NCBI GenBank assembly: GCA_031082205.1
Contig: JAVHLJ010000005.1
Location: forward strand, 10,269 to 74,268
Direction of reading: 5' to 3'
Length of the DNA stretch: 64,000 nt
From: Elusimicrobiales bacterium
Lineage (GTDB): Bacteria > Elusimicrobiota > Elusimicrobia > Elusimicrobiales > UBA9959
Positions 11,869-42,958 of this stretch are shown here, one piece after another. The notes under the pieces were generated by a model. The model saw only the letters and a program-made list of their open reading frames with translations. It was not told the DNA's origin and did not search any database. The position numbers and the translations under genes were made by a program. Numbering within the stretch: the first letter of the stretch is position 1; every line of letters begins with the position of its first letter.

Positions 11869-11871
11869 CGG

Positions 11872-15849: not shown

Positions 15850-15857
15850 GAGGAGCC

Positions 15858-16748: not shown

Positions 16749-16764
16749 CGGTGCGGGGGCGCGC

Positions 16765-18069
16765 TCAGCGGCCGGAGAGGATCTCCCTGCCGGCCTCCAG
16801 GCCTTCCCTTACGCTCTCCTCCATGAAGGAGTATTTCCAGGCCCCGTAGCGGCCGATGGAGCGCGCCCGGCGCTCTTTCAGCCAGCCGGCTATGACCGGC
16901 AGGGCCCTGGCCCTGTCCGCGTCGTATATCACGTAGGCGCAGGGGATCTTCAGCCACATCTTTTCCGTGACCTGCCGGGAGTCCCTTATCAGGCCGCAGG
17001 CGGCCAGGCCTTTGACGCAGGCGCGCTCCGCGGACTCCAGGTCCAGCGGACGGCCGTCGGTGGCTATCTCTATGTAGAACGAGGCCTGCCCGTCCGGGGC
17101 GAGGCGCCGCGAGAAATTGCTGGCTATGCCGGCGCGGTAGAAAGGGAAGGCGGCGCCGGGGAAATAACCCCAGTGCATGTCCGACCTGACGCCCCGGGCC
17201 CCGAGGTTAAGCACGTAGACGGAGTTGCGGCGAAGGCGGGCCGCCGCGCGGCGCACCTCCGCCGGGGCGTCGGCGCACATGGCGACGAATTCGTCGAGCG
17301 GGGCGGTGTTGATCAGCCGCCTGAAGCTTATCTCGCCGAAATGCCTCACCCGCGCCCTGCGCGCGCGCAGGTCCACCCGCTCCACCTCTATGCCGAGATG
17401 CGTTCCGCCGGCCTTCAGCGCCAGCGCCGAGGCCAGCGCGCCGATGCCGCCCCTTCGCGGGTAATGGAAGACGGCGTTATAGCCAATGGAGCTGGCCCCG
17501 GGGCCGTAGGCGCCTTTTATTATGTCCCCGGGCGACGGTACGGGGACGAAGGGCGCGCACCATTCGGTCGTGAGGCGGTCCAGCGGGTACTGCCAGAGCT
17601 TGGCGTTGTACGGGAGCATGAAATGCCGGGAGATCCCGGCGCCGAAGACGCGCCGGCTCCAGTCATCGAAAGTTTCGGAGCCGTCGCCGGGCGCGCCGCC
17701 GCCCGCGGCCAGGGCGCGCAGGAACCCGGCGACGCACTCCGACCTGACGGCCGGAGGCATGGCTGCCAGGTTGGCCTGGAAAGGGTACGGAGTCCACCGC
17801 CCGTGCGCGAAAACGCGGGCGTCGCGCCTCAGCGTCCGGACATTGGCGCCCAGCGCGCCCATTATCAGGCGCGTAGTTTCCGGCCAGCGCAGGTGCAGCA
17901 GGTGGCCGGAATAGTCGAAATGGAAGCCGCCTTTTCGTATGGTCGCGGCCAGGCCGCCGTAGCGCACCTCCCTCTCGGCCAGGAAGGTCTTCTTACGGCC
18001 TTTGAGCGCCATGGCGGCCGAAAGCCCTGCCAGGCCACCGCCTATGATGAGCGCGTCGGTCCTTATCAT
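16765..18069 (-). CDS. FAD-dependent oxidoreductase, UDP-galactopyranose-mutase-like (long, eukaryote-type family resemblance)
   Basis: N-terminal IIGGGLAGL dinucleotide fold. GRWTPYPFQ, TFDDW, LPYNAKLW and YPRRGGIG resemble motifs I recall from long-form UGMs. Function is not proven. Confidence 0.5.
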   Translation of the reverse strand: MIRTDALIIGGGLAGLSAAMALKGRKKTFLAEREVRYGGLAATIRKGGFHFDYSGHLLHLRWPETTRLIMGALGANVRTLRRDARVFAHGRWTPYPFQANLAAMPPAVRSECVAGFLRALAAGGGAPGDGSETFDDWSRRVFGAGISRHFMLPYNAKLWQYPLDRLTTEWCAPFVPVPSPGDIIKGAYGPGASSIGYNAVFHYPRRGGIGALASALALKAGGTHLGIEVERVDLRARRARVRHFGEISFRRLINTAPLDEFVAMCADAPAEVRRAAARLRRNSVYVLNLGARGVRSDMHWGYFPGAAFPFYRAGIASNFSRRLAPDGQASFYIEIATDGRPLDLESAERACVKGLAACGLIRDSRQVTEKMWLKIPCAYVIYDADRARALPVIAGWLKERRARSIGRYGAWKYSFMEESVREGLEAGREILSGR

Positions 18070-18121
18070 CGGAGGGATATTATAGCAACTATCATTTTCA
18101 GGGAGGGCGGCGCCGTATCTT

Positions 18122-18985
18122 TCAGCGCGAGGGCCGCAGTACGGCCGTCATCTCGCCCATGGTCAGGAAAAAATTACCGGACCTCATGCCGCTGGGGAGC
18201 ATCCCCGCCAGCAGGGCGCTGGCCGGGGTGAGGAGGGGGTGCGGATAGGCCGCGAACTGGGTGCGCAGGTACTCCAGATTCATCGCTTTTTTCGCCGCGG
18301 CGAAGTGCACCGCCTCGAAGCCGCATTTTTCCGCGAGAAGCGAGAGGGAGCGCCTGTTGAAATAGAAAAGATGCTCCGGCTTGTAATGCGTCCACCTGCG
18401 CCCCATGATCCTGGCCGTCAGCGAGTCCGTGTCCGGCGTCATTATCATTATCGCGCCGTCGTTCCTGAGCAGCCTGCGCGCGGCGGACAGCGCGCGCAGC
18501 GGGTCGCGCACGTGTTCCAGCAGGTCGGACATCGCGATGACGTCGAAATGACCGTCCGGGAAAGGGCAGTCCTCGATGACGCCGTGGTGAACCCTCTCCC
18601 CGCCGAACTTCTCCCGGGCGGCGGCGCTGGAATAATCGGATATCTCCACGCCGTAGGCGCGGAAGCCCCTCTTTTCGGCGGCCTCCATGAAAAAGCCCGT
18701 GGCGCAGCCCACGTCAAGTATATTGCCGCCCGCCCTGTAGCGGGAGATGAGGTCCAGCCGCAATCCGAAGGTGGCGGTCTTCATGGCCTTCAGCGCTTCA
18801 TGTTCCCGGCCTCCGGCCAGGCCCCAGGAGCCGTAATAGCCCTCGCCGTAGATGTCCTTCAGTTCCGCGTCCGTCGGTTGCGGGCTGATGAAGCGCGCGG
18901 TGCAGGATTGGCAGGCGTGCAGGGCGCCGGAGCCCAGCGGCCGGCCCTTCTTCAGCGGTCCGGATCCGCAGACCGGGCAGTTCAC
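18122..18985 (-). CDS. Class I SAM-dependent methyltransferase with an N-terminal zinc-ribbon
   Basis: Start set to the GTG at 18985, which overlaps the upstream stop (GTGA). CPVCGS...CQSC ribbon and SAM motif I ILDVGCATG. The 101 codons upstream in the track overlap the GT-C gene out of frame. Confidence 0.75.
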   Translation of the reverse strand: MNCPVCGSGPLKKGRPLGSGALHACQSCTARFISPQPTDAELKDIYGEGYYGSWGLAGGREHEALKAMKTATFGLRLDLISRYRAGGNILDVGCATGFFMEAAEKRGFRAYGVEISDYSSAAAREKFGGERVHHGVIEDCPFPDGHFDVIAMSDLLEHVRDPLRALSAARRLLRNDGAIMIMTPDTDSLTARIMGRRWTHYKPEHLFYFNRRSLSLLAEKCGFEAVHFAAAKKAMNLEYLRTQFAAYPHPLLTPASALLAGMLPSGMRSGNFFLTMGEMTAVLRPSR

Positions 18986-20193
18986 CTGGAGGCTCCCTTG
19001 ATCTTCCCGGCGGCGCCATGGAGGAAGACCAGGCCGGCGGCGCAGAACATGAGCATGAAATGGTCGTAGGGCAGGCGGTACCTGGGGGTGCCGAGTATCA
19101 CGCTGTGCATCAGGGATACGTAAGCCAGGTATAGCAGCGCGGGCAGTAGGGGGACGATATTCGACCTCGTGATCATGAAAAAGCCGCAGACGGCCGCGGC
19201 GAGCAGGAGGTAATGCGCTGACTGGTAAAGCGCGCCGTAGAGCGGGGAGATATCGGAGATCATCACTTTCCCTATCGGGAGGGTCCATAGGCGCCAGAAG
19301 TTCCTGGCCAGCTTGAGCGAGTAATCGAAGGGATTAGTGAGCGCGTACTTCATCACCTTCCTTCCGACTATGCTTTCCATCTCGTGGCGGGGCAGCTCCG
19401 CCAGCTCCGGGTATTCCCGCAGCGGGCTTAGTTCTCTTATCCTGTCGCCGTCCCAGGCGTCGTCCTGTATGGCGTACCACATCAGCCAGCCGCTGCCGGT
19501 GTTGACCGCCAGGAAGCCGCCGTGGGCGTAATAGTTGCGCACCGTCCAGACGGATATCAGGGCGGTGCTTATCGCGGCGTAAAGGACGAACCCCTTCAGC
19601 AGGCCGCGGAAGCGTCTGAAGAGCATGACCGGCAGCAGGAAGAGGGGGAAAAGCAGCGTGGGGGCCCGGACGAGGACGGCGACGCCGTGCAGTATCCCGG
19701 CCAGGGCGAACTTCCGGTTGTCGCCCTCCTTGAAGGCCCTGGTAAGCAGCAGGCATTCCCAGAGGAAAAGGAACATGAAAAGGCATTCGGTCAGCCGCAC
19801 GTTGCTGTAAAGTATGAAGGGCGGGTAGGCCGCCGCCAGGAGGCCCGCAGCCAGGGCGGCGGACGGCGGGAATATGAGCCCGGTTATGGTCATGAGCAGC
19901 ACGGCGCTGCCCGAGTCTATGAAGCACTGGAGCAGCCTGACGGCGAATTCGCTGTGGCCCGTGACCGAATATACCGCGGCCAGGAAGAGCGGGTAGACGG
20001 GAGGGCGGCCGTCGGTCGGCCGGCCCGGCGCCTCGATGAACCCGTTGCCCTGCATCAGGTTCACCGCCACGGCCTCGTAGGCCTTGGCGTCGAAGCGTTC
20101 GTAGGCTTCGGGAATGGACGGCGCGCCGAACAGGAGCCCGAGGCGCAGGGCCAGTGCCGCGAGGAATACGTAAAGCCCGGCCTTCGATCTCAT
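18982..20193 (-). CDS. GT-C fold membrane glycosyltransferase (ArnT/PMT-like, GT39/GT83)
   Basis: 403 aa with about 10 TM helices. The first loop carries an acidic/aromatic motif (ERFDAKAYE). PMT_2-like layout. Confidence 0.7.
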   Translation of the reverse strand: MRSKAGLYVFLAALALRLGLLFGAPSIPEAYERFDAKAYEAVAVNLMQGNGFIEAPGRPTDGRPPVYPLFLAAVYSVTGHSEFAVRLLQCFIDSGSAVLLMTITGLIFPPSAALAAGLLAAAYPPFILYSNVRLTECLFMFLFLWECLLLTRAFKEGDNRKFALAGILHGVAVLVRAPTLLFPLFLLPVMLFRRFRGLLKGFVLYAAISTALISVWTVRNYYAHGGFLAVNTGSGWLMWYAIQDDAWDGDRIRELSPLREYPELAELPRHEMESIVGRKVMKYALTNPFDYSLKLARNFWRLWTLPIGKVMISDISPLYGALYQSAHYLLLAAAVCGFFMITRSNIVPLLPALLYLAYVSLMHSVILGTPRYRLPYDHFMLMFCAAGLVFLHGAAGKIKGASR

Positions 20194-20194
20194 T

Positions 20195-21592
20195 TCATTT
20201 CTCCCCGAACCAGGTATTGGCCGCCAGCGCGGCGGCCTGCTTGACCTGGCGCGTCAGGTCGTAGAGGGACCTGATCCGGGCCAGGCGCCTGATGATATAG
20301 CGGGGGTTGAAGTAGAAGGCCGATACGGCTCGCCTGCGGTATGCCGCTATCTCCGCGCGGGAAAGCGTCCTGCTGGCCATGGCCACCTCCGCGCCGGACT
20401 GGTCCATGACGGCGAAATCCCCGTCGACGAGGCCGTGGGAGATGGCCTCCTCCCTGAGGGGGGTCCCCATGCGCGGTACCGCGACGTTGATGGAGGCGTA
20501 GTCGAGCTTTATGGTGCGGAGAAGGTCCAGCGTCCGTTCCATCGTCTCGCGGGTCTCCTCGGGCAGGCCCAGGATGAATGTCCCGACCGTTTCTATGCCT
20601 ATGGCGGCGCAGTGGTCGATGGCGGATACTATCTGCGCGCGCGTGTAGCCCTTGCCGTATTTTTTAAGTATCTCGTCGGAGCCGGACTCGACCCCGAAGA
20701 TGACGGTATGGCAGCCGGCCTCCCGCATCAGCGAGAGCAGTTCCGGGTCGGCGACGTCGACCCGGGAGAAGCAGGTCCAGCCTATGCCCAGGCCCGCGCT
20801 TATCATGCGTCGGCACAGTTCCCTGGCCTCTTCCTTGCGCGCGCCGAAGGTCTGGGTGTGGAAAAGGACCTCGGTGATCCCGAGACTTTTGATATGCCCC
20901 AGCTCGGCCATCACTGAATCCGGCGTGCGGGACTTGAACCCGAGGGTGCCCATCACGCAGAAGCTGCAGTGGAAAGGGCAGCCGTAATCCGTCAGGACCG
21001 TCGCGAAACGCCTGCTCCTGACGAAGGGGTGGCGGTATCCGCGGCCGGAGAAGATCTCGTGCCGGGGCACCGGTATCTCGAAACGCGGGGCGGGCTTGCC
21101 CGGCGCGGGCCGCAGCACTTCGTCCCCCGAGCGTATCAGCATGCCGGCGGCCGAAGCCAGGTCGCCCTTCAGGTATGAGAGGATGCCGGGGGTGGTGAAA
21201 TCGAGGAGCAGGGCGTCGAGGGGGGATCCCGGGGCCAGGTACCTGTCGCCGCCCTCCCGGAAAGCGTCGCCTATCCCCACCAGCCTGGCTCCCGGGCAGG
21301 CCGACCTGACCCTGGCGGCGAAGGCCAGGTCCTCCGGCAGGCTGACCGAGCCGAACAGGGAGATCACGGCGAAAGGTCCGAAGTCCCGTATCCGCTCGAG
21401 CGTCCTTTCGGGGGAAAGTTTCTCCGCCATGGCGTCGACGAGCCCGATCTCGTACTCGCCCGCCAGTATGCCGCTCAGGACGACGAAGTCCACCGGGTGG
21501 GTCAGGTAGTCGGCCTGCGAGACCTTGCTGCAGAAATAATCGCGTATGTAGAGGCGCTCGCCGGGGGGATTGAGCAGCAGTACTTTTTTCAT
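20195..21592 (-). CDS. B12-binding-domain radical SAM enzyme (paralog A)
   Basis: Start trimmed to the ATG at 21592 (MKKVLLLNPP), an ATGA overlap with GT9. N-terminal Rossmann-like B12 domain, CPFHCSFC (CxxxCxxC) cluster motif and GVESGS. Confidence 0.85.
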   Translation of the reverse strand: MKKVLLLNPPGERLYIRDYFCSKVSQADYLTHPVDFVVLSGILAGEYEIGLVDAMAEKLSPERTLERIRDFGPFAVISLFGSVSLPEDLAFAARVRSACPGARLVGIGDAFREGGDRYLAPGSPLDALLLDFTTPGILSYLKGDLASAAGMLIRSGDEVLRPAPGKPAPRFEIPVPRHEIFSGRGYRHPFVRSRRFATVLTDYGCPFHCSFCVMGTLGFKSRTPDSVMAELGHIKSLGITEVLFHTQTFGARKEEARELCRRMISAGLGIGWTCFSRVDVADPELLSLMREAGCHTVIFGVESGSDEILKKYGKGYTRAQIVSAIDHCAAIGIETVGTFILGLPEETRETMERTLDLLRTIKLDYASINVAVPRMGTPLREEAISHGLVDGDFAVMDQSGAEVAMASRTLSRAEIAAYRRRAVSAFYFNPRYIIRRLARIRSLYDLTRQVKQAAALAANTWFGEK

Positions 21593-22758
21593 CTGGCCAG
21601 TTTCTTTTCGACCTCTTTCAGCACTTCTTCCGGGTCTATGGCCTGCATGCACCTGGCCTCGGTCCAGTAGCAGCGGACGGATTTGCGGTCATGGACGTTG
21701 ATGCAGGGACTGCATTCTATGTTCTTGAAGAACACCGAATGCCCCTCCCCGAGCGGGCCGTAGATGACGGGAGTTTCGGGGCCGAAGAACGAGACGGTGC
21801 GCGTGCCCATGGCGGCGGCCAGGTGCAGCGGGCCGCCGTCGTTGGAGATCACGAGCTTCGCGCCTTCCAGGAGAGCGGCCAGCTGCGTGACGGAAAGCCT
21901 GCCGGAAAAGTCCAGAGCGCGGGGGCTGTTCAGCCGGCGGTGCATCTCCCGGACATAGGGGGTCTCTTTCCCCGACCCGGTGAGGACGACATGGGGCCCT
22001 CCGCGTTCGATAAGTCCTCCCAGGAGTCGGGCGAAACTGTCGGCCGGCCAGCGGCGTTCAACGCTCAGGTCGCCCGCGCTGACATAGGCGCAGACGTATC
22101 CGCCGGAGGCCCCGCCCGCCTCCAGCATCCCTTTCACCGCGTCCCGGTCCGCCTGGCTTATTAAAGGCCTGACCGGTTCCAGCTTCTCCTTTTTCACCAG
22201 GCCGATGTGGGTGCCGAGGGCGTAAAAGCTGTCGCTTATGTGCCAGTACCTGTTGAAGGGGACCCTTATGGTGTGTATGTTTCCCCGCCAGGTCTCCCAG
22301 GCGTGATAACCCACCTTGACCCTGGCGAAAGTGAAGAAGGAGACTATCGCCGAAAAACGGGTGAAGAATTCGAAGTCCAGGACCAGGTCGAAGCGTTCCT
22401 TCCAGAGATAGCGCATGACCGACGCGAAGGACCCCGCGAAAGCGGCCCAGCCCCCGTCGATGTCCAGGGTCACGATATCGTCGAAAAGACCCAGCGCCCG
22501 GCTTATCTCGCGGTTCCTGCCCAGGGTAAGGAAGACGAGCCTGGAGCCGGGATAGGTCTTCCTGAACTCGGCCAGGGTCGGGGCGAGCAGGAGTATGCTG
22601 CCCATGCCGAAGAACTTCATGGCCAGGGTCCTGCGTATCTCCTCGCCGCGCAGGGCGGGGGCCTCCCGCCGGAAGAGGCGGGTCAGGACCGTGAGCAGCA
22701 GGCAAAGCGGCAGGCCGGCGTACTTGTCCAGGAATTTAAGGAGATTTATGTTCATCAT
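21589..22758 (-). CDS. Glycosyltransferase family 9 (heptosyltransferase-like)
   Basis: C-terminal GT9 signature ...LVISNDGGPLHLAAAMGTRTVSFFGPETP. 389 aa. Confidence 0.8.
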   Translation of the reverse strand: MMNINLLKFLDKYAGLPLCLLLTVLTRLFRREAPALRGEEIRRTLAMKFFGMGSILLLAPTLAEFRKTYPGSRLVFLTLGRNREISRALGLFDDIVTLDIDGGWAAFAGSFASVMRYLWKERFDLVLDFEFFTRFSAIVSFFTFARVKVGYHAWETWRGNIHTIRVPFNRYWHISDSFYALGTHIGLVKKEKLEPVRPLISQADRDAVKGMLEAGGASGGYVCAYVSAGDLSVERRWPADSFARLLGGLIERGGPHVVLTGSGKETPYVREMHRRLNSPRALDFSGRLSVTQLAALLEGAKLVISNDGGPLHLAAAMGTRTVSFFGPETPVIYGPLGEGHSVFFKNIECSPCINVHDRKSVRCYWTEARCMQAIDPEEVLKEVEKKLAR

Positions 22759-22782
22759 TTCCGGGTCCGGGCCTTTCGCCGG

Positions 22783-24204
22783 CTATTTTTTCAGGAGGTG
22801 ACCGTAGTTCTTGAGCGCGAAGACGCAGGTCCTGAAAAAACTCCTTTTCTCGCTCTTTAGGAATATATAAAAATACACGGCGCCGAACCATAGCTTGAAC
22901 AGCGGGTTGGGCGGCAGTTTTATCAGCAGCTTCACCAGGGGCAGGGTCCAGGGCCAGAGGACGGCGGTCTGGAAGAACTTGTGCAGGTTCTCTATCCTGC
23001 GTATGCCGGGCATCCTGAGCTGGGAGTCTATGAAGAAGGAACCGGAGATGGAGTCGGGGCTGAAGTCCTTGTCCAGGTAGCCCCGCTCCTGGGCGTAGAC
23101 GGTGAGGGCGGTGCGGGGGTAAGGGGAGAAAATGGAGCACCAGGGATAGTCGGCCTTGATACGCACGTTCATGCGTATGGTCCCGAACGCGTCCTCGAGC
23201 GTCTCGTCCGGGAGACCGACAATGTTGTAAGTCCTGAAAGGCAGGCCCGCCTCGTGGAGCATGGCCGCGGCCTTGTATATGTCGGCGTCCTTTATCCCTT
23301 TTTTGAGGACCTTGTTGCGGAGAGCCTCCGAGCCGGTCTCTATGCCGAAGAAGACGCTCCTGCAGCCGGCGTCCCTGAGCCGCCGGGCGTAGTCGGGGCT
23401 GGCGCTCATTATGTCCGCCCGCGCCAGGCACAGGAAGTCGAGCCCTATCTCCCGCCTGTATTCCTCGAGGAAGCCGTAAAGCCAGCGCTTGTCCAGCCCG
23501 AAGACGTCGTCACAGAAATAGACGGTCTTCACCTCTCCCTGTTTTTTCAATTCGCGCAGTTCCTCTATGACTTTGGCCGCGCTGCGCACCCTTACGTGGC
23601 GCCCCTTGTCCCGGTAAAGGTCCCTTATGCTGTCCTCGAAGCAGAAAGTGCAGTGGAAGGGGCAGCCCCGCGAGGTTATGACGTTCCTGACGCTGCGGTC
23701 CGCGCCGGCCCCCAGCGCGCGGTAGAGCGTGCGGTCCGGGAAGGGGTACTCGTCGAGGTCGGCGCGCAGCGTCCGCACCGGGTTCCTCGTTATGACGCCG
23801 CCGGTCTTCACGTGAAGGTTGGCGATGCCGGAGATGTCGCCGCCGGCGTCCAGCGCGTCCAGCAGGTCCAGGACGGCGTCCTCGCCTTCGCCCCTGCAGA
23901 TGACGTCCACGCCTTCCTCCTCGATGAATTCGGGGAAGAAGGTGGGATGCGCGCCGCCGAAAAGCGACAGCGCCCGGTACCGCGCTTTCAGGGCTTTCGC
24001 CGTCTCCCTGGCCCAGCGGTGGGACCCGGTCATGATGGAGAAGGCTATCACGTCCGGCCTGAACGAATCCATGACGCCGTAAAAATCCTCCGGCCGGCCG
24101 CCCAGCGCCAGCTCGCAGGCGTGCCTCCCCTTCACGGCCGCGGATATGTACATCGGCCCGAGGAACTCGTACTCGATGTTCTGCAGGAAAAGGAGTTTGG
24201 CCAT
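22783..24204 (-). CDS. B12-binding-domain radical SAM enzyme (paralog B) with a hydrophobic C-terminal tail
   Basis: Start trimmed to the ATG at 24204 (MAKLLFLQN), a TAATG overlap with paralog C. SRGCPFHCTFC motif. The last ~60 aa are rich in W/F/L/Y. Confidence 0.85.
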   Translation of the reverse strand: MAKLLFLQNIEYEFLGPMYISAAVKGRHACELALGGRPEDFYGVMDSFRPDVIAFSIMTGSHRWARETAKALKARYRALSLFGGAHPTFFPEFIEEEGVDVICRGEGEDAVLDLLDALDAGGDISGIANLHVKTGGVITRNPVRTLRADLDEYPFPDRTLYRALGAGADRSVRNVITSRGCPFHCTFCFEDSIRDLYRDKGRHVRVRSAAKVIEELRELKKQGEVKTVYFCDDVFGLDKRWLYGFLEEYRREIGLDFLCLARADIMSASPDYARRLRDAGCRSVFFGIETGSEALRNKVLKKGIKDADIYKAAAMLHEAGLPFRTYNIVGLPDETLEDAFGTIRMNVRIKADYPWCSIFSPYPRTALTVYAQERGYLDKDFSPDSISGSFFIDSQLRMPGIRRIENLHKFFQTAVLWPWTLPLVKLLIKLPPNPLFKLWFGAVYFYIFLKSEKRSFFRTCVFALKNYGHLLKK

Positions 24205-25658: not shown

Positions 25659-25781
25659 GTCAGAGTCCGTTAGCGTTCCGGCGATGTCGCGGATATACGG
25701 GGATCTCCCGGCGGAAAAGCCCCTCCCCGGACAACAGATTGTATCAAATAGGCGCGAAGCGGAGGGGGGCCGGCGCGGCGG
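25659..25781 (-). promoter_or_regulatory. Largest intergenic spacer inside the glycan locus; possible internal promoter
   Basis: 123 bp. The minus strand reads ...TTTGATACAATCTG... (TACAAT -10-like) followed by imperfect GC stems. No clear SD precedes the paralog C ATG. Confidence 0.25.
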
Positions 25782-30958: not shown

Positions 30959-30998
30959 GATCGCGGCGCCCGCAACCGCCCGCCGGCGGGGCGCGCTC

Positions 30999-32423
30999 CT
31001 ACTTTTTGCCGGACGAAAGGTACTGAGAGAAACTCCTGAGACCGTGCAGTTTCCGCAGAACGTCCCCCAGGGACCTGATGTTCTTCAGCATTCTGAGCAT
31101 CTGCGCGGGCCGCAGGTAGAATTCCTTGAGACCGGTGTCGATCAGTTCGTCGATCTCTTCCTTGGTGAGCCCGGGATAGCTCAACAGGGTCGCCTGCTCC
31201 TTCTCCGGGCTGACCCACTCTCTCCAGTCCCTGGGCACGAGGTAGCCGTTGCTCTTCGCCCAGTCGTAAAGTTCCGTTCCGGGATAGACGCAGATGCCCG
31301 AGAACTGCACCGTGTCCAGCGGCAGGCTTTTGGCGAAAGCTATGGTGGCCAGGGCGGAGGCTTTAGTTTCGCCGGGAGCCCCTATCATGAAGCAGCCGTG
31401 CAGAGTGAACCCCAGCCTGGAGGCTTCGGCCGCGAAGCGGCGCGATTGTTCCAGCGTGACGCCTTTCTTCACGGCGTCGAGCGCCGCCTGGGTGCCGAAT
31501 TCGAAACCCACCATGAGCATGCGGCAGCCCGCCCGGCGCATGAGCGGCAGCAGGCCCAGGTCCATGTCCACGCGGGTATTGCAGCTCCAGGTGATCTTAA
31601 GCCCGCGGCGGAGCATCTCCCCGCAGAGTTCCCGGACATGGCCGGGGTTCGCCGTCATGGTGTCGGTCTCGAACATGATCTCCCGTATGCCGGGGAAAAG
31701 GCGGAGATCGTATTCCATCTCGTCTACTATGGCCGCGGGGGAGCGCAGGCGCACTTTCCTGCCGCACATGGCTTCGGACGTGTCGCGGCAGAAGGTGCAG
31801 CGGCCGGGGCAGCCGCGGCCGGATATAAGGGTCAGGAAAGGCAGCCGTTTGCCGATATCCTTGTACCAGGAGGGGTCTATGTGGCGCCAGGCCGGGAAAG
31901 GAAGGGAATCCACGTCGACGGGCTCCCCGGGAGGATTGTTGACGGTCCCGCCGACGGCCTGCCGGCTCAGTCCCGGTATGGAGGCCGGGTCACGCCCGTC
32001 GGCCAGGTCCAGGAGCTGGTAGTCGTATTCGCCCCTGGCTATAAAGTCTGCGGCCCCTTTGGCCAGCGCGAAGGTCTCGGCGGGCAGGGCCGTGACATGC
32101 GGCCCCACCAGCACGGTCCGGCAGGAAAAAGCGGCTTTAAGGGCGGCGGCGTGCTCTATGTCCGAATAAATGGAGGGGGTGGTGGTATGGACCACGGCGA
32201 GTTCCGGCGCGAAAGTTCCGGCTTCGGCCAGTACCTCCGGCAGGTCCATGTTCCGGGCGGCGGCGTCGATGAATTTGACGGTATGGCCGCCGCGCTCCAG
32301 GACGCCGACGGCGATAAGGAGCCAGTCGGGATGGCGCTGTACCCGCCCGCGGGAGCGGGCCGCCCACCTGGCCGACCTGCAGAAATCCCTGCCGTATGAA
32401 GGATTGAGCACCAGTATTTTCAT
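30999..32423 (-). CDS. B12-binding-domain radical SAM enzyme (paralog E)
   Basis: MKILVLNPSYG N-terminus, GRGCPGRCTFC motif and a C-terminal EFYLRPAQMLRMLKNIRSL segment. 474 aa. Confidence 0.87.
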   Translation of the reverse strand: MKILVLNPSYGRDFCRSARWAARSRGRVQRHPDWLLIAVGVLERGGHTVKFIDAAARNMDLPEVLAEAGTFAPELAVVHTTTPSIYSDIEHAAALKAAFSCRTVLVGPHVTALPAETFALAKGAADFIARGEYDYQLLDLADGRDPASIPGLSRQAVGGTVNNPPGEPVDVDSLPFPAWRHIDPSWYKDIGKRLPFLTLISGRGCPGRCTFCRDTSEAMCGRKVRLRSPAAIVDEMEYDLRLFPGIREIMFETDTMTANPGHVRELCGEMLRRGLKITWSCNTRVDMDLGLLPLMRRAGCRMLMVGFEFGTQAALDAVKKGVTLEQSRRFAAEASRLGFTLHGCFMIGAPGETKASALATIAFAKSLPLDTVQFSGICVYPGTELYDWAKSNGYLVPRDWREWVSPEKEQATLLSYPGLTKEEIDELIDTGLKEFYLRPAQMLRMLKNIRSLGDVLRKLHGLRSFSQYLSSGKK

Positions 32424-32427
32424 CGTT

Positions 32428-33111
32428 TTAAGGCGCCAGCCTGAGCCTTATTATGTTCCAGACGGCCATGAAGCCGTCCTTCCAGTTGATCTTCTTGCCC
32501 TCGCCGTAGGTGCGGGGGGTGTAGCTTATGGGTATCTCTTTTATCCTGACCCCGCGCCTGATAAGGCTGACGGCCAGCTCGGTGTCGAAATCGAAGCCGT
32601 TGCAGGTGAACTTCATCCCTTCCAGGGTCTTGAGCCTGAAGACCTTGTAGCAGGTGAGCACGTCGGTCATGCTGGAGCCGTAAAGCGCGTTGGTCAGGCC
32701 TATGATCACCCGGTTGGCTATCAGGCTGGCTGTCCTGAACCTGGCCCCGCCCAGGAAGCGGGAGCCGAAGACCACGTCGCTCTCGCCCTCCAGTATGGGC
32801 CGCAGGAGGGCGGGGTATTCCTCGGGGCTGACCTCCAGGTCGGCGTCCTGTATGATGGCTATGTCGCCCGTGGCGGCGTCGAGGCCCTTGCGCACGGCGC
32901 AGCCCTTGCCGCCGCGGCGCTCCTCGTATATGACGCGCGTGCCCGGGATATTCTCCTCGGCGCGCAGGACCTCCCTGGTGCCGTCGGAAGATGCCCCGTC
33001 CACGACTATTATCTCCTTCTCCATGCCGACGGGCACGCTGCGGACCCGGGAGATTATCTCCCGCACGGTCGCGGCCTCGTTATAGGAAGGGATTATTACG
33101 GAGAGTTTCAT
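32428..33111 (-). CDS. Soluble GT2, polyprenyl-phosphate glycosyltransferase-like (DPM1/ArnC/GtrB type)
   Basis: VIIPSYNE...VVDGASSDGT...IQDADLE, 227 aa, no TM tail. Clear paralog of 36072-36788. Confidence 0.75.
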   Translation of the reverse strand: MKLSVIIPSYNEAATVREIISRVRSVPVGMEKEIIVVDGASSDGTREVLRAEENIPGTRVIYEERRGGKGCAVRKGLDAATGDIAIIQDADLEVSPEEYPALLRPILEGESDVVFGSRFLGGARFRTASLIANRVIIGLTNALYGSSMTDVLTCYKVFRLKTLEGMKFTCNGFDFDTELAVSLIRRGVRIKEIPISYTPRTYGEGKKINWKDGFMAVWNIIRLRLAP

Positions 33112-33807
33112 TCAGGGGCAGGAGCGCAGGCGGCGCGCTTCCTGGGTCGCTTCCTCCAGCTGGGACGCCTTCTCTATGCCCAGCCAGTAATCGGAGAATT
33201 CGTATATGCCGACGTGCCTGCCGGCGGCCAGGAGCGAATTGACCAGTTCCGGCATCGTGAAAGCGCCTGCGCGGGGGATCCTGCGCAGGGCGCAGGGGGA
33301 GACGGCGTAGATGCCGGCCGATACCAGGTGTTCCGTCACCGGCTTTTCCGTTATCCCGGTGACCCTGCCGCCGGAGGCCGAGACCGTGCCGAAAGGCAGC
33401 CGGTCGAAGTACTTGCGCGCGGCGATGGTCAGCTCAGCGCCAGAGCGCCGGTGGGCGGCCATGAACTTCCTGAAGTCCAGCCGGGTGAGTATGTCGCCGT
33501 TCATGACCAGGAAGGGCTCGCGCAGTCCCTTTATGAGGCGCAGCGGGCCGGCGGTGCCGAGCGGGCGGCGCTCCCTGGTGTAGCATATGCGGACGCCGAA
33601 CTTCTCGCCGCCGCCGAAATAGGCCTCTATCAGCTCCGCGCCGTAGCCGAGCGTAAGGGTTATGTCCTTTATGCCCAGCGCCTTGAGCCGCCTGACCATG
33701 TGCTCGAGGATCGGCTTCTCGTCCACCGGCAGCAGCGGCTTGGGGATGGAGAAAGTGAAAGGGCGGAGCCTTGTGCCGCAGCCGCCGGCTATGATGACCG
33801 CTTTCAT
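33112..33807 (-). CDS. Sugar-1-phosphate nucleotidyltransferase
   Basis: MKAVIIAGGCGTRLRPFT...PKPLLPV (GxGTRL P-loop-like motif). 231 aa. Abuts the downstream GT2 with a 0-nt gap. Confidence 0.8.
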   Translation of the reverse strand: MKAVIIAGGCGTRLRPFTFSIPKPLLPVDEKPILEHMVRRLKALGIKDITLTLGYGAELIEAYFGGGEKFGVRICYTRERRPLGTAGPLRLIKGLREPFLVMNGDILTRLDFRKFMAAHRRSGAELTIAARKYFDRLPFGTVSASGGRVTGITEKPVTEHLVSAGIYAVSPCALRRIPRAGAFTMPELVNSLLAAGRHVGIYEFSDYWLGIEKASQLEEATQEARRLRSCP

Positions 33808-33829
33808 CGTAATCTCCGCTCCCCCTGCT

Positions 33830-34819
33830 TCAGATATTGTACTTGTCCGGGCTGTAGCCCTCGGAGTGCGACTTTATCCAGTCGATGGTCTGCTTCAGCC
33901 CGCTTTCGAGCGTGGTGCGCGGCTTCCAGCCGATCAGTTCCGCGGCCAGGGAGTTGTCGCAGAGCAGCTGCATAACCTCGCTGCCCTTCGGGCGCTTCCT
34001 GGCGCTCGTCGTCTCTATTTTTACCTTGCGGCCCATTAGCCGCAGTATCTCGGCCGCCAGTTCCCCGACGGAGATGTCGCGGCCGGTGCCGATGTTTATC
34101 ACCCGGCCCACCGAGCGGGGCGATTCCGCCGTCAGTATGAAGCCTTCCACGGTGTCGGCCACGTAGTTGAGGTCCCTGCGCGGGGCGAGGGCGCCCAGCT
34201 TGACCGTCCGCTTCGTGAGGGCCTGGGCTATTATGGTGGGGATGATCGCCCTGTCGGACTGGCGCGGCCCGTAGGTGTTGAAAGGCCGTATGACCGCCAC
34301 CGGCAGCCCGTAGGTGCGGTTGAAGGACTCCGCTATCTTGTCGGCCGCGATCTTGCTGGCGGAGTAGGGGGACTGGGCCTGCAGCGGGTGTTTCTCGTCT
34401 ATCGGGGTGTAGAGGGCCGTGCCGTAGACCTCGGAGGTGGAGGTGGTTACCACCTTGCTGGCCCCGGCGTCCCGGGCGGCCAGCAGGACGTTGAGCGTGC
34501 CCAGGGCGTTGACCTCGAACACCTCGCGCGGGTTCACGTAGGAGTACGGTATTCCCACGAGCGCTCCGAGGTGAAAAACGACGTCCTTCTTCTTCAGGAG
34601 CTTTTTCACCATTTCGGGGTCGCGCAGGTCGCCCGGCACGAACTCGATCTGCGAGAGGACCTGCCGCGGAGCGTGCTTGAGCGCGCCGAGGTCGTTGTAA
34701 GGCGTGTATTCCAGCAGGGCCGTCACCCTGGCCCCCAGGCGGACCAGGCGCTCGGCGAGGTGGCTCCCTATGAAGCCGCTTCCTCCCGTTATAAGGACCT
34801 TTCGGCCGCGCCAGTTCAT
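33830..34819 (-). CDS. NAD-dependent epimerase/dehydratase (extended SDR, UXS/ArnA-C-terminal/RmlB-like)
   Basis: Start trimmed to the ATG at 34819 (MNWRGRKVLITGGSGFIGSHL). STSEVYG and the YSASK catalytic motif. Confidence 0.82.
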   Translation of the reverse strand: MNWRGRKVLITGGSGFIGSHLAERLVRLGARVTALLEYTPYNDLGALKHAPRQVLSQIEFVPGDLRDPEMVKKLLKKKDVVFHLGALVGIPYSYVNPREVFEVNALGTLNVLLAARDAGASKVVTTSTSEVYGTALYTPIDEKHPLQAQSPYSASKIAADKIAESFNRTYGLPVAVIRPFNTYGPRQSDRAIIPTIIAQALTKRTVKLGALAPRRDLNYVADTVEGFILTAESPRSVGRVINIGTGRDISVGELAAEILRLMGRKVKIETTSARKRPKGSEVMQLLCDNSLAAELIGWKPRTTLESGLKQTIDWIKSHSEGYSPDKYNI

Positions 34820-34830
34820 CGGCCGGGCCT

Positions 34831-35961
34831 TCAGACCGCGGCCTTGAGGGATTCTTTCACCGCGTCGGTCACGGTCTTTATCTGCTCGTCCGTGAGTTCG
34901 GGGTACATCGGCAGGGAGAACACCGTGTCCATCACCGCGTCGCAGACCGGCAGGTCTCCGCGCTTGCCGCCGAGGTGTTTGTAGGCCTCCTGCAGGTGCA
35001 GGGCTATCGGGTAGTAGATCTGGTTGGCTATGCCCTTCTCCGTCAGGTGCTTCTGGGCGTTGTCGCGCTTGGCCTTGCTGTCGAAGCGTATCGTGTAGTA
35101 GTTGAACGAGTGGCGGCCGTTGGCCGGCACGACGGGGGTCACGCAGACGCCTTCGAGGGCTTTCGCGTACTTGGCGGCCACCTGGTTGCGCATCTCGGTC
35201 CACTTCTCGACGTGCCTGAGGCGTATGGAGAGGATGGCGGCCTGCACGGTGTCGAGGCGGCTGTTGAAGCCCTCCATCTCGTGATGGTAGCGCACCTTGC
35301 TGCCGTGGTTGCGCAGCTGTATCAGCGTCTCGTAGATCTTCTGGTCGTTGGTCGTGACCGCGCCGCCGTCGCCGAATGCGCCGAGGTTCTTGGCCGGGAA
35401 GAAGCTGAAGGTGCCGCAGTGGCCGATATTGCCCAGGTATTTCCAGTCCCCGCCGGCCGGCTTGTACTTGCCGGTGAAGGCCTGGGCGGTGTCCTCGATG
35501 ACGATGAGGCCGTGCTTCTTCGCCAGGGTCATGAAGGCGTCCATGTCGCAGGGATAGCCGTAGAGGTGCACCGGCACGATGGCCCTGGTCTTCTTCGTTA
35601 TCTTCTTCTCGACCGACTTCGGGTCGAGGTTGAAGGTGACGGGATCGATGTCGGCGAACACCGGCACCGCGCCGACCTGGGTGATGGTCTCGGAGGTGGC
35701 GATGAAAGTGAAGGGGGAGGTTATGACCTCGTCGCCGGGCTTTACGCCGCTGGCGATATAGGCCATGCGCAGGGCGTCGGTGCCGTTGGCCACGCCGACG
35801 CAGTACTTCGCGCCGTTATGGGCGGCGAATTCGGCCTCGAACTTCTTTACCTCTTCGCCGAGTATGAAATTGGCCTTGTTGAAAATGTTCTTTACGGCGG
35901 CCTCCACCTCGTCCTTTATGGGGGGATAGCCTGCCAGCATGTCTACCATGGGAACTTTCAT
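34831..35961 (-). CDS. DegT/DnrJ/EryC1/StrS-family sugar aminotransferase
   Basis: Start trimmed to the ATG at 35961, preceded by a GGAGG RBS. PLP-Lys context FSFFPAKNLGAFGDGG. 376 aa. Confidence 0.88.
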   Translation of the reverse strand: MKVPMVDMLAGYPPIKDEVEAAVKNIFNKANFILGEEVKKFEAEFAAHNGAKYCVGVANGTDALRMAYIASGVKPGDEVITSPFTFIATSETITQVGAVPVFADIDPVTFNLDPKSVEKKITKKTRAIVPVHLYGYPCDMDAFMTLAKKHGLIVIEDTAQAFTGKYKPAGGDWKYLGNIGHCGTFSFFPAKNLGAFGDGGAVTTNDQKIYETLIQLRNHGSKVRYHHEMEGFNSRLDTVQAAILSIRLRHVEKWTEMRNQVAAKYAKALEGVCVTPVVPANGRHSFNYYTIRFDSKAKRDNAQKHLTEKGIANQIYYPIALHLQEAYKHLGGKRGDLPVCDAVMDTVFSLPMYPELTDEQIKTVTDAVKESLKAAV

Positions 35962-36071
35962 CGGTTTTAGCCTCCGTGGGGCGGCTTCGGGCCGCCAATG
36001 AGGCAATTATATAAAAAAGTGTCTTTAATTGTATAATTGAGTCTCCCGCGGGGCCGACGGGACCTCTTACA
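35962..36071. promoter_or_regulatory. Divergent promoter region of the glycan locus
   Basis: AT-rich island. Extended -10 TGTATAAT on + at 36030-37 and TATAAT on - at 36006-11. A 6-bp GC hairpin at 35980-35996 lies in the leftward 5' UTR ahead of the GGAGG RBS. Confidence 0.5.
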
Positions 36072-36788
36072 ATGAAAGTTTCCATAGTCATACCTTCCTA
36101 TAACGAGATGCGCACTCTGCCGGCCGTCCTTGAAAGGCTGGGGGAGGTGCCGCTCGACAAGGAGGTGCTGGTTGTAGACGACGGCTCTTCCGACGGCTCC
36201 CGGGAATGGCTGGAGCGGGCCATAGACGAAAAACGTTTCCCTTTCGAGCTGCGCCTGATAAAACACCCGGAGAACCGGGGCAAGGGGGGGGCCCTTATCA
36301 CCGGCTTCAACGCGGCCGCGGGCGCAGCAGTCATAGTACAGGACGCGGACCTGGAGTACGACCCGGTACAGATCCCGGAAGTGGTCCGGCCCATAGCCGA
36401 GGGCCGGGCCGACGCCGTTTTCGGCTCCAGGATGCTTTCAGGAAAAGCCGCCACTTACAGCCTTCTCTACCTGGCCGGCAACAAGTTCCTCTCTTTCCTG
36501 GTGTCGCTGCTCTTCGGCGTGCGGATGACGGATTCCTACACCTGCTATAAGGCTTTCCGCGCCGCGGAGCTGCGCCGCCTGGCCCTCTCCTCGCGCGGTT
36601 TCGAGATAGAAGCGGAGCTCTCCTGCAAGACGGCCTTCCTCGGCCTGCGCTTCATGGAGGTCCCGATAGCCTACTCCCCGCGTTCCAGGAAGGAAGGGAA
36701 GAAAATAAATTTCCGGGACGCGGTCAAGGGAGTGCTGAAAATACTGGGCCTGCGGCTGAGCCTGCGCCGAAGGGATCTCGGGGGATAG
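36072..36788 (+). CDS. Soluble GT2, polyprenyl-phosphate glycosyltransferase-like (second copy)
   Basis: VIPSYNE...VVDDGSSDGS...VQDADLE, 238 aa. Collinear similarity with 32428-33111 along the full length. Confidence 0.78.
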   Translation: MKVSIVIPSYNEMRTLPAVLERLGEVPLDKEVLVVDDGSSDGSREWLERAIDEKRFPFELRLIKHPENRGKGGALITGFNAAAGAAVIVQDADLEYDPVQIPEVVRPIAEGRADAVFGSRMLSGKAATYSLLYLAGNKFLSFLVSLLFGVRMTDSYTCYKAFRAAELRRLALSSRGFEIEAELSCKTAFLGLRFMEVPIAYSPRSRKEGKKINFRDAVKGVLKILGLRLSLRRRDLGG

Positions 36789-36806
36789 GCCCGGGGGCCG
36801 GCCGCG

Positions 36807-37847
36807 ATGGAGATCCTGATACATAATTTCGGCCTTTACCTGGCCTGTTTCGCCGGGGCCCTGGCCGTTTCCCTGGCGCTGACCCCCGCCCTGCGCTCGC
36901 TGGCGGTCCGGTTAGGCCATCTGGACGCCCCCACCACCCACGTCAAGACCCATAAGGTCGCGACCCCGCTGCTGGGCGGCGTGGCCGTGGCCGCGGCCTT
37001 CGCCGTTTCGCTGATAGCCACGCGCTTCCTTACCGATTTCCCGACCGGCACGCTGCGCGACCTGCGCGTGCTGCTTGCCGGGGGGGCCGTCATGCTTCTG
37101 CTGGGCCTGGCCGACGACCTGCGCAAGCCGGACGGCCTGGGCGTGAAGACCAAGTTCGCGGTCCAGTTCGCGGTGGCCTTCTTTACCGTCTTTTACGGGA
37201 TAAAGATAGACTTCATACAGCCTTCCTACCTGGCCGGGGCGCTGAGCGTTCTATGGATAGTCGGGGTCTCCAACGCTTTCAACATCATCGACATAATGGA
37301 CGGGCTCTCCGCCAGCCAGGCGGCGCTGGCCGCGGCCGGCTTCCTTCTTATAGCCCTGCCTTCGGAATCCATCTACGTCAATTTCGCTTCGGCCGCCCTG
37401 TGCGGGGCGGCGCTGGGGTTCCTGCCTTACAATTTCTCGCGGCGGTTCAAGATATTCATGGGAGATTCCGGCAGCCTCTTCTGCGGCTACACGCTGGCCG
37501 TGATAGCCATGGGGACCAGTTACACCAATATGAACCCGCTGGGCGTATACGCCCCGCTTTTCATACTCGCCCTGCCCATCTACGACACGCTTTTCGTCTC
37601 GGTCATGAGGCTGAAGCGCGGGCACTCGCCGTTCATAGGCAGCAAGGACCATTACGCGCTGCGGCTGGAGGCGCTGGGATTCTCCCGCCGGCGGGTGGTC
37701 TTCATCTCCGCCATGACGGCCGTGGCCCTTTCGGCCGCGGCGTTCCTGGTGACGCAGGTCCCGCTGGAATGGGGCGCGCTGATCTATTTCGTGGTCGGCG
37801 GGGAGTTCGTCCTGGTCAGCCTGGCCATCGCCAAGATAAAAGTCTAA
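36807..37847 (+). CDS. Polyprenyl-phosphate hexose/HexNAc-1-phosphate transferase (MraY/WecA family)
   Basis: About 10 TM helices and the VSNAFNIIDIMDGL signature (NxxNxxDGxDGL). 346 aa. Confidence 0.82.
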   Translation: MEILIHNFGLYLACFAGALAVSLALTPALRSLAVRLGHLDAPTTHVKTHKVATPLLGGVAVAAAFAVSLIATRFLTDFPTGTLRDLRVLLAGGAVMLLLGLADDLRKPDGLGVKTKFAVQFAVAFFTVFYGIKIDFIQPSYLAGALSVLWIVGVSNAFNIIDIMDGLSASQAALAAAGFLLIALPSESIYVNFASAALCGAALGFLPYNFSRRFKIFMGDSGSLFCGYTLAVIAMGTSYTNMNPLGVYAPLFILALPIYDTLFVSVMRLKRGHSPFIGSKDHYALRLEALGFSRRRVVFISAMTAVALSAAAFLVTQVPLEWGALIYFVVGGEFVLVSLAIAKIKV

Positions 37848-39525: not shown

Positions 39526-39550
39526 AGGTATATTGTAGCATGCGGGGGCG

Positions 39551-40924: not shown

Positions 40925-40925
40925 G

Positions 40926-42950: not shown

Positions 42951-42958
42951 CCGTTCCT

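Follow-up and report, generated by a model that had tools for sequence, protein, structure and literature searches.

Radical SAM proteins among the glycosyltransferases of an Elusimicrobiales envelope-glycan locus, and their likeness to HpnJ and AprD4

Class B-type radical S-adenosylmethionine (SAM) enzymes (rSAMs) are among the largest pools of function-unknown enzymes. One of them, HpnJ, is the proposed ring-contracting enzyme that acts on hopanoid-linked glucosamine in the synthesis of bacteriohopanetetrol cyclitol ether (PMC9204698, PMC13459092, PMC9092360), a chemistry that rests on knock-outs only. Together with PtmC (pactamycin) and the calditol synthase Cds, it has been proposed to rearrange a sugar after attachment of that sugar to a lipid or aglycone (PMC9092360, PMC13459092, PMC9204698). 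AprD4, a radical SAM 1,2-diol dehydratase (PDB 6fd2), acts directly on an aminosugar ring in the C3' deoxygenation of apramycin. Three-component systems for polyprenyl-phosphate glycosylation, made up of a family 2 glycosyltransferase (GT2), a flippase and a GT-C enzyme, form a separate described class that includes pentofuranose systems (PMC11127046). Here we describe a locus at positions 16765-37847 of a 64,000-nucleotide stretch of DNA from an Elusimicrobiales bacterium (assembly GCA_031082205.1, contig JAVHLJ010000005.1, positions 10,269 to 74,268; hereafter the window), in which five rSAM proteins, R1 to R5, are encoded among glycosyltransferases. We think it probable, with due reserve, that this locus is a chromosomal assembly line for an envelope glycoconjugate, built of three modules that pair glycosyltransferases with HpnJ/AprD4-like rSAMs tailoring polyprenyl-phosphate-linked sugars. 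The adjacency of rSAM genes to specific glycosyltransferase genes suggests that lipid-linked sugars undergo a radical tailoring of a kind not yet described.

The locus comprises 18 genes, a gene model that was reproduced from the sequence and that independent gene calls on near-identical public contigs match, including those of the metagenome-assembled genome GCA_040752315.1. Sixteen genes run co-directionally on the minus strand, from 35961 down to 16765, and encode, in order of transcription, a DegT aminotransferase, a short-chain dehydrogenase/reductase (SDR), a nucleotidyltransferase, GT2a, R5, R4, a GT4 enzyme, GT2m, GTCb, R3, R2, a GT9 enzyme, R1, GTCa, a methyltransferase and an FAD enzyme. 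A divergent plus-strand pair (36072-36788 and 36807-37847) encodes GT2b and a WecA/MraY-family transferase. The first-pass annotation of this DNA had counted 17 minus-strand genes; the actual count is 16, and the gaps between them measure only 4-123 nt and therefore hide no seventeenth gene. Its description of the region as an envelope glycan or glycolipid locus is supported, the locus being built around polyprenyl-phosphate glycosyltransferases and GT-C enzymes, and Pfam matches confirm the families that it had named: two GT-C enzymes, two DPM1/ArnC-like GT2s, a membrane GT2, a GT4, a GT9, a WecA-like protein, a SAM methyltransferase, a nucleotidyltransferase and a DegT aminotransferase.

The 18 window proteins were compared with all open reading frames (ORFs) of 130 fetched loci, and the neighbours of R5 were clustered over 81 R5 loci. 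We regard as directly established which genes the locus contains, the families of their products, their conserved synteny and one gene fusion. The rSAM genes keep glycosyltransferase neighbours in other genomes, a point on which the first-pass annotation had staked its interpretation. In 29 of the 81 clustered loci, GT2m is found no more than 7 kb from R5, usually together with a DPM1-like GT2. This trio is found in Nitrospinota (L008), Desulfobacterota (L007), Acidobacteriota, Planctomycetota and DPANN archaea (L034, L039, L068), and the same grouping occurs in Elusimicrobiota and Nitrospirota. Brachyspira catarrhinii combines R5 with a GT2m-like GT2 and three class I methyltransferases. DUF2304, the partner of PpgS in the Rv3631/Rv3632 system, is present in 13 R5-related loci, where it accompanies the GT2.

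R3 keeps different company. In Terrybacteria (L094), genes for a DPM1-like GT2 (43% identical to GT2a), R3 (52%) and a PMT_2 GT-C follow one another and overlap, and the same GT2, R3, PMT_2 order recurs on a patescibacterial contig (L133, Ga0265297_10000004); in these two Patescibacteria lineages, the genes overlap or abut. On the L133 contig, the PMT_2 GT-C is fused with an rSAM/SPASM domain (L133:7452-10016, 854 aa), and a neighbouring gene encodes a B12-domain rSAM fused with a class I methyltransferase (L133:1342-3501, 719 aa). The recurrent order of GT2, rSAM and GT-C suggests that a polyprenyl-P-monosaccharide is edited between its synthesis and its transfer.

R2 and R1 are found with GT9. 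R2 adjoins GT9 in four loci (L092, L093, L135, L136); a Syntrophaceae locus carries GT9, a methyltransferase and R2, and a planctomycete locus carries GT2, R2, a methyltransferase, GT9 and PMT_2. Loci of Tenacibaculum and Aquimarina contain HldE, GmhA, GT9, R1-like rSAMs (38-39% identity, E 1e-80 and 1e-116), GT-C genes and R2 (57%), and ADP-heptose genes accompany R1/R2 in both flavobacteria. Their GT-C genes are of family GT87 in both. In Aquimarina algiphila, the R1 relative (39%, E 1e-116) is fused end-to-start to GT9, and GT9-like genes are the usual neighbours of R1 orthologues in metagenomes.

The closest Elusimicrobia (L010-L012) share WecA, GT2b, DegT, GT2a, R5, R4, GT4, GT2m and GTCb with the window, and their R4 adjoins GT4 and GT2m. 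The SDR and nucleotidyltransferase genes are matched in L010 and L011 and the FAD enzyme gene in L010, and the block from R3 through R2, GT9, R1 and GTCa to the methyltransferase is absent from all three. A further locus, L096, has this block at 88-93% identity (82-93% for its gene products) and keeps modules B and C as defined below. Given that these relatives keep different parts, the window locus reads as a concatenation of three modules, each conserved elsewhere. Two or more such rSAM genes occur in 18 of 80 GTDB loci, one of which (Elusimicrobiota) has six; multi-rSAM glycan loci therefore recur, and the arrangement is not unique to this genome.

The first-pass annotation had called the five rSAMs paralogues. 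They are not recent ones, and form five separate, mostly widespread families. Pairwise identity among R1-R5 is 28-33%, and in a neighbour-joining (NJ) tree, which is rough and has no support values, each groups with orthologues of other phyla and not with its locus neighbours; these identities and separate clades rule out recent tandem duplication. R5 has more than 2000 relatives, and the 120 listed are 61-78% identical, save one near-copy at 98%. The listed relatives come from Elusimicrobiota, Nitrospirota, Nitrospinota, Desulfobacterota, Acidobacteriota, Planctomycetota, Latescibacterota and Bacteroidota among bacteria, and from Promethearchaeota and Altiarchaeota among archaea. A pattern-based scan that took one genome for each GTDB species confirmed 303 loci of the family, including those of cultured B. 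catarrhinii and of Nano-, Undin- and Methanobacteriota archaea. R5 is 31-35% identical to bona fide HpnJ (31% for the protein encoded beside hpnI/hpnK on a Burkholderia replicon, L091) and 37% identical to an rSAM on plasmid 1 of Lawsonia intracellularis, and both branch just outside the R5 clade in the NJ tree, again without support values. Sequence comparison places the highly conserved R5 family as a sister of HpnJ.

The Lawsonia plasmid (L090, NC_008012.1, record 5800-21900), a 27-kb replicon of a pig pathogen, is itself largely a glycan locus. It encodes GT2 enzymes, two DUF2304 proteins, a SIS-domain protein, the HpnJ-like rSAM and a second rSAM, five class I methyltransferases, a HAD hydrolase and a GHMP kinase, and its rSAMs are annotated only generically.

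The remaining families differ in breadth. Relatives of R2 (55-79% identical) come from Elusimicrobiota, Syntrophaceae, Planctomycetota, Calditrichota and cultured Flavobacteriia, and those of R3 (50-87%) from Elusimicrobiota, Nitrospirota, Planctomycetota including anammox bacteria, and Patescibacteria. Orthologues of R1, about 44% identical, occur in a handful of metagenomes. R4 is narrow: a search of 1.84 billion representatives returned 30,608 clusters (at 50% identity) with E<=1e-10, of which about ten lie at 41-45% identity, followed by generic matches at about 33%. The search also recovered giant proteins (900-2600 aa; P0371-P0376, P0387, P0413 and others) with two to five tandem R4-like class-B rSAM matches, which make them appear to be multi-domain rSAM proteins.

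All five rSAMs match Radical_SAM (PF04055, 65-111 bits) and carry an intact CxxxCxxC motif, in agreement with the earlier reading of these motifs. The B12-binding domain PF02310 is matched by R2 (59 bits), R3 (80), R4 (35) and R5 (32.1, exactly the gathering score), and R1 gives no Pfam match to it at E<=1e-3. The B12-type N-terminal domain once assigned to all five is thus detected in R2-R5, at the borderline in R5, and goes undetected in R1; for these four, B12-binding is a predicted domain label and not proof of cobalamin use.

We then placed the rSAMs against characterised families by NCBIfam model scores and by profile and fold searches of the PDB. None attains the curated cut-off of any characterised NCBIfam family; the scores are all far under these cut-offs, and by them none of the five falls in a characterised orthologous family, a possibility that the first-pass annotation had weighed. 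Against the HpnJ equivalog (TIGR03471, curated cut-off 577.6 bits), R5 scores 331 bits over its full length, R3 184, R1 158, R4 156 and R2 111, and two further R5-family members score 322 (P0082) and 347 bits (P0052). HpnJ is the best NCBIfam model for R1, R2, R4 and R5 and the second for R3. The models that follow are ApyD, BchE, PhpK and AprD4, the last (NF033070) at 55-125 bits across the rSAMs against a cut-off of 500. AprD4 is the nearest solved structure to R5 by PDB profile search, and the AlphaFold (AF2) model of R5 (pLDDT 85) finds its best fold match in a substrate-bound AprD4 structure (TM 0.71-0.76), followed by TsrM, MgmA, OxsB, CysS and TokK. The model superposes on TsrM, OxsB and TokK, but the closest superposition is with AprD4, in which the corresponding domain does not bind cobalamin. 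HpnJ, the closest family, and AprD4, the closest structure, had both been missing from the first-pass list of nearest characterised enzymes.

The same comparisons bear on a view that takes the rSAMs for conventional C-methyltransferases dependent on cobalamin (GenK, MoeK5 or Fom3 type), which would add C-methyl branches to sugars in an otherwise ordinary lipopolysaccharide (LPS) core or O-chain-like glycan. The PF02310 domain in four of the five proteins speaks for it, as do the fold matches to TsrM, TokK, CysS and MgmA, the fact that the majority of characterised class B enzymes are methylases, and the co-localisation of Fom3, MoeK5 and HpnJ at a stringent threshold in a published sequence-similarity network (PMC9204698); GT9 and the outer-membrane context of the window would fit LPS. 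Yet the best model and the best structure are both of non-methylases, a B12 domain is not detectable in R1, the scores come nowhere near the cut-off of any methylase family, class I methyltransferases are already present in the loci, and orthologues of R3 occur in Patescibacteria, which have no LPS. We consider this explanation unlikely, and note that it is a narrower version of the glycan-tailoring idea, with chemistry that is already known.

The best NCBIfam match of R3 is ApyD (189 bits), an enzyme of ribosomally synthesised and post-translationally modified peptides (RiPPs), the protein glutamine methylase MgmA is among the fold matches of R5, and the PMT family includes protein O-mannosyltransferases. 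The locus might on these grounds modify and glycosylate a protein or peptide, with rSAMs as RiPP-type or side-chain modifiers (ApyD, PoyB/C, MgmA) and PMT_2 enzymes as protein O-glycosyltransferases. The ApyD score, however, is a quarter of the cut-off of 750 and equal to the HpnJ score, the locus holds no precursor peptide, protease or RiPP recognition element within gaps of at most 123 nt, and the conserved neighbours are glycan genes, so that we give this explanation very little credence.

Returning to the tailoring of lipid-linked sugars, rSAMs need SAM and a low-potential reductant and must therefore act at the cytoplasmic face, which would direct them to nucleotide- or lipid-linked sugars before flipping. 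The GT2, GT4 and GT9 transferases are cytoplasmic; PMT_2-type GT-C enzymes, by family, use polyprenyl-phosphate sugars outside the cytoplasm. For this locus, we infer which lipid-linked substrates are used, in what order the steps occur, what types of reaction take place and what the final acceptor is. The deformylation of Und-P-Ara4FN by ArnD is the same kind of editing as that proposed for the rSAMs here, for which rearrangement or ring contraction, deoxygenation, epimerisation and C-methylation are candidate reactions; the first-pass annotation had put forward C-methylations and C-C or ether links.

Module A extends from the DegT aminotransferase to GT2m and would begin with the supply of an aminosugar. 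The aminotransferase (34831-35961, minus; PF01041, 394 bits), product of the first minus-strand gene, is of DegT/PseC/LegC type and also WecE-like, scores 249 bits against PseC and 229 against dTDP-4-amino-4,6-dideoxygalactose transaminase, and is 88-89% identical in L010-L012. The SDR (33830-34819, minus) is a LegB-like NDP-hexose 4,6-dehydratase (TIGR04180, 406 bits against a cut-off of 475; GDP_Man_Dehyd, 233 bits), and the sugar-1-phosphate nucleotidyltransferase (33112-33807, minus; PF00483, 115 bits) has mannose-1-P guanylyltransferase and archaeal GlmU as its nearest models. The first-pass annotation had taken these three for an Arn-like module with a dehydratase/decarboxylase. The SDR is not of the ArnA type (65 bits against a cut-off of 777), and the Arn assignment was rejected altogether, given also ArnB at 200 against 631 bits and ArnC at 73 and 63 against 529; neither a formyltransferase nor a deformylase is found among the 18 gene products. 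By their model scores, the genes resemble a Leg/Pse/viosamine-type route to a 4-amino-4,6-dideoxyhexose, and together the three enzymes would yield the NDP-linked form of this sugar.

GT2a (32428-33111, minus), a polyprenyl-phosphate glycosyltransferase of the DPM1/AglJ/ArnC type, would load a sugar onto polyprenyl phosphate. It also matches dolichyl-P hexose transferase, ArnC and PpgS models, and its nearest PDB entries are DPMS (5mlz), ArnC and GtrB; all matches of GT2a and GT2b to polyprenyl-phosphate glycosyltransferase models lie under the equivalog cut-offs and assign the two at family level only. R5 (30999-32423, minus; CPGRCTFC) and R4 (29525-30958, minus; CPFRCSFC; 79-80% identical in L010-L012), both B12-domain rSAMs, would remodel the loaded sugar, and GT2m and the GT4 enzyme would extend it. 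GT4 (28407-29525, minus) is of the GT-B fold, matches Glyco_trans_4_4, Glyco_transf_4 and Glyco_trans_1_4, and is 56-62% identical in L010-L012. GT2m (27452-28414, minus; PF00535, 114 bits), the partner of R5, has a hydrophobic C-terminal segment; its nearest models are MftF, EpsD and AglG, and its nearest PDB entries chondroitin synthase and GalT1.

R5 also carries, at residues 14-32 after the first beta-strand of its Rossmann-like domain, the motif FCRSARWAAKSRGRVQRHP, which is almost invariant across the R5 family, archaeal members included, and is partly retained in HpnJ (R19, A22, P32). Residues 18-29 within this stretch are the sole internal part of the AlphaFold model with pLDDT <50. 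The motif may form a loop that binds cofactor or substrate.

Module B consists of GTCb and R3, probably with GT2b and WecA, a set of DPM1-like GT2, rSAM and GT-C in which R3 would tailor a polyprenyl-P-monosaccharide and the GT-C would then transfer it outside the cytoplasm. GTCb (25782-27455, minus) is a PMT_2/PMT-family protein (PF13231, 63 bits; PF02366, 33 bits) with weak matches to archaeal STT3 and Agl23 and none to PDB sequences, and is 41-43% identical in L010-L012. R3 (24204-25658, minus; CPGKCTFC) is a B12-domain rSAM. GT2b (36072-36788, plus) is a DPM1/AglJ-type polyprenyl-phosphate glycosyltransferase, 43% identical to GT2a and with the same nearest models and structures, and the WecA/MraY-family polyprenyl-phosphate sugar-phosphate transferase (36807-37847, plus), a phosphoglycosyl transferase, scores 102 bits against PF00953 and 111 against the WecA model (cut-off 326).

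Module C is centred on GT9 and runs from R2 to the FAD enzyme; beside its two rSAMs and one GT-C, it would contribute an O/N-methyltransferase and a pyranose-furanose mutase. R2 (22783-24204, minus; CPFHCTFC) is a B12-domain rSAM, and R1 (20195-21592, minus; CPFHCSFC; PF04055) has a degenerate N-terminal Rossmann-like domain. Between them lies GT9 (21589-22758, minus; PF01075, 101 bits), a member of the heptosyltransferase family that scores 79-87 bits, under the cut-offs, against the heptosyltransferase III/II models. GTCa (18982-20193, minus) is a PMT_2-family GT-C (PF13231, 63 bits), 93% identical in L096, and a PMT_2 gene, by a weak match, likewise joins the R1/R2 locus of Aquimarina. The class I SAM-dependent methyltransferase (18122-18985, minus; Methyltransf_23, 104 bits), whose GTG start overlaps the upstream stop, has counterparts that adjoin R2 orthologues in L093 and L136. 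The FAD enzyme (16765-18069, minus; Amino_oxidase and NAD_binding_8), last gene of the module, is 70-82% identical in L010 and L096. The earlier suggestion that it resembles UDP-galactopyranose mutase (UGM) was borne out: it is related to the eukaryote-type enzyme (PDB 3ute and 4dsg, E 4e-45) and is probably a pyranose-furanose mutase, and by this relationship the locus probably makes a furanose sugar.

Candidate final acceptors are the LPS core, another glycolipid or a protein. The window contains an outer-membrane efflux protein (OEP) gene, which fits a diderm organism, and this context together with GT9 would point to the LPS core as acceptor; given that the same modules are found in Patescibacteria, LPS is not required in general.

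Several points weigh against the tailoring of lipid-linked sugars by these enzymes. The R5 genes of Omnitrophota and of many Planctomycetales are solitary, with only lineage-specific housekeeping neighbours (aconitase, chorismate synthase, TPR and VWA proteins), and such neighbourhoods give no functional clue and are mild counter-evidence. The Asgard R5 orthologue (Promethearchaeota L009, JBQSIE010000001.1, 10001-11437), 64% identical, is likewise isolated. The linkage between rSAM and glycosyltransferase genes is therefore not universal. The anammox orthologue of R3 adjoins a CDP-alcohol phosphatidyltransferase and methyltransferases, not a GT-C, which makes a role on lipid head groups possible. 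No GtrA, SMR (ArnE/F-type) or DUF2304 flippase gene is found in the locus, and a tblastn search with 13 DUF2304 proteins finds none in the window; Wzx/Wzy/Wzz, a Wzm/Wzt ABC exporter and a WaaL ligase are also absent from the 18 gene products, and the pathway is accordingly incomplete as encoded. None of the five rSAM families has a characterised member, sequence assigns neither chemistry nor substrate, HpnJ has never been reconstituted in vitro (PMC9092360), and the NJ tree that separates the rSAM clades has no support values. Ring contraction would, moreover, abolish the glycosyl-donor character of a sugar, and an HpnJ-type reaction is thus impossible for rSAMs that act upstream of a GT-C; for these, C-methylation, AprD4-like deoxygenation or epimerisation is more likely. 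Since the partner of R5 is an elongating GT2 and not a GT-C, an HpnJ-like rearrangement is plausible for R5.

The Asgard R5 gene lies between genes for an actin homologue, a BNR-repeat protein and an Arf/Ras-family GTPase, with no glycosyltransferase nearby.

Some of these neighbourhoods would suit rSAMs that act on the lipid part (polyprenyl, acyl or alkyl chain, or phospholipid head group) in the manner of Tes, Mss, GrsA or the ladderane candidates, by methylation, cross-linking or cyclisation, with glycosyltransferases that only decorate the product. All five proteins match TIGR04072 (lipid biosynthesis B12-binding/radical SAM) at 81-103 bits, the anammox R3 has its phosphatidyltransferase neighbour, the stand-alone R5 genes of Omnitrophota suggest a general membrane substrate, and many recently characterised lipid-modifying enzymes are rSAMs (PMC13459092). 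The TIGR04072 scores are nevertheless far under the cut-off of 360 and lower than those for HpnJ, the recurrent neighbours are sugar-nucleotide enzymes and glycosyltransferases rather than lipid-synthesis genes, and HpnJ and AprD4, the nearest relatives for which a substrate is known or proposed, both work on sugar rings. We therefore regard a lipid substrate as distinctly improbable.

The stop/start junctions that the first-pass annotation had reported were every one correct on re-reading of the sequence: overlapping junctions with GTGA at 18985 and ATGA at 21592 and 27455, TAATG at 24204, TGATG at 29525, an 8-nt overlap at 28407-28414 and a zero gap at 33111/33112. The locus is bounded by housekeeping genes, on the left by dapF/dapA, convergent with it, and on the right by OsmC. 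A phosphofructokinase encoded in the window is at least 90% identical to proteins of Elusimicrobiales metagenome-assembled genomes. A 922-aa ORF at 22783-25551 (minus) was rejected as an artefact in which the R2 frame runs through the out-of-frame part of R3. Other spurious long ORFs lie at 28209-29744, 30885-32399 and 32170-33975 (all plus); these frames, of 500-922 aa, overlap real genes and result from the G+C content of about 65%. Outside the locus, a second, longer NTP_transferase (55157-56164, plus; 335 aa) adjoins a class I/II aminotransferase (56195-57376, minus) and might supply sugar-nucleotide pools. The products of a minus-strand group downstream of OsmC (38365-44369) look, taken together, like subunits of a glycolate or lactate oxidase: a GAF-HD signalling protein, a ferredoxin/CCG-domain protein and a large FAD_binding_4 oxidase. 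Near-identical contigs keep this group beside the locus, to which it is probably unrelated.

These data allow us to state what the locus would contribute. R5, R2 and R3 are uncharacterised families conserved at 50-79% identity across phyla, with R5 also spanning both prokaryotic domains, and their reproducible glycosyltransferase partners give a concrete substrate hypothesis, namely lipid-linked sugars. If this is correct, radical chemistry would join the recognised means by which sugars are edited while on a polyprenyl carrier, and rare C-branched, deoxy or carbocyclic envelope sugars would be explained; if wrong, the annotation of this elaborate envelope glycan locus from an uncultured phylum remains sound. 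Cultured carriers allow the hypothesis to be tested, including Aquimarina algiphila, Tenacibaculum retecalamus, B. catarrhinii and L. intracellularis with its 27-kb plasmid 1. A wider proposal, which we hold tentatively and lean somewhat against, is that rSAM remodelling of polyprenyl-P-linked sugars is a widespread undescribed layer of prokaryotic glycobiology in which R5, R3 and R1/R2 each carry out a distinct radical reaction. Such reactions would comprise ring contraction to a carbasugar, C-branching, deoxygenation or epimerisation, after which a GT2 or GT-C would pass the sugar on. The proposal, if true, would fill a gap in the enzymology of unusual envelope sugars, both in bacteria (from Patescibacteria to Flavobacteriia) and in archaea (DPANN and Asgard), and the Elusimicrobiales locus would be its extreme case, with five radical steps stacked. 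The origin of carbocyclic LPS sugars such as caryose has been stated to be unknown (PMC9092360).

No described pathway had come to the attention of the first-pass annotation, and in the open-access literature we likewise found no published work on these rSAM families or on rSAMs in GT-C/polyprenyl-P systems. The closest likeness is to HpnJ, which has, as R1-R5 do, an N-terminal Rossmann-like domain, a CxxxCxxC rSAM barrel and a C-terminal helical domain in the class B-type layout. Like R5, HpnJ is paired with a GT2, and it is proposed to act after this HpnI-type enzyme has attached an aminosugar to the lipid (PMC9092360, PMC13459092). In contrast, the score of R5 (331 bits) is well below the HpnJ cut-off (578 bits), and the carrier here is most likely polyprenyl phosphate. 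An assignment of R5 and GT2m as an HpnJ/HpnI pair was rejected at family level: GT2m has no HpnI match, its nearest structures being of the chondroitin-synthase type, and the window contains no hpnI, hpnK, shc or other hopanoid genes. AprD4 shares the three-domain layout of R5 and differs in its identity of only about 22%, its soluble pseudodisaccharide substrate, its reductase AprD3 and its lack of bound cobalamin; no AprD3-like partner is evident in the locus.

Among glycosylation systems, the haloarchaeal Agl pathway combines the Dol-P-hexose synthase AglJ, the second-sugar transferase AglG and AglB. GT2a and GT2b score 139 and 122 bits against AglJ, GT2m matches AglG at 55 bits, and GTCb has weak STT3/Agl23 similarity, scores that would fit assembly of a short glycan on a monophosphate carrier. 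The scores are far under the cut-offs, however, the host is bacterial, there is no AglB/STT3-grade match, and Agl pathways have no rSAMs. With the three-component systems ArnC/ArnE-F/ArnT, GtrB/GtrA/Gtr* and PpgS/Rv3632/Rv3779, the locus shares two GT2s and two GT-C enzymes, the latter being the two PMT_2 proteins at 63 bits each; it differs from them in having rSAMs as the proposed editing enzymes and no flippase or DUF2304 gene of its own. The locus is an experimentally reachable lead rather than a categorically new system or one unique to this genome: it would work like a three-component polyprenyl-phosphate glycosylation system to which HpnJ/AprD4-like sugar-tailoring rSAMs have been joined.

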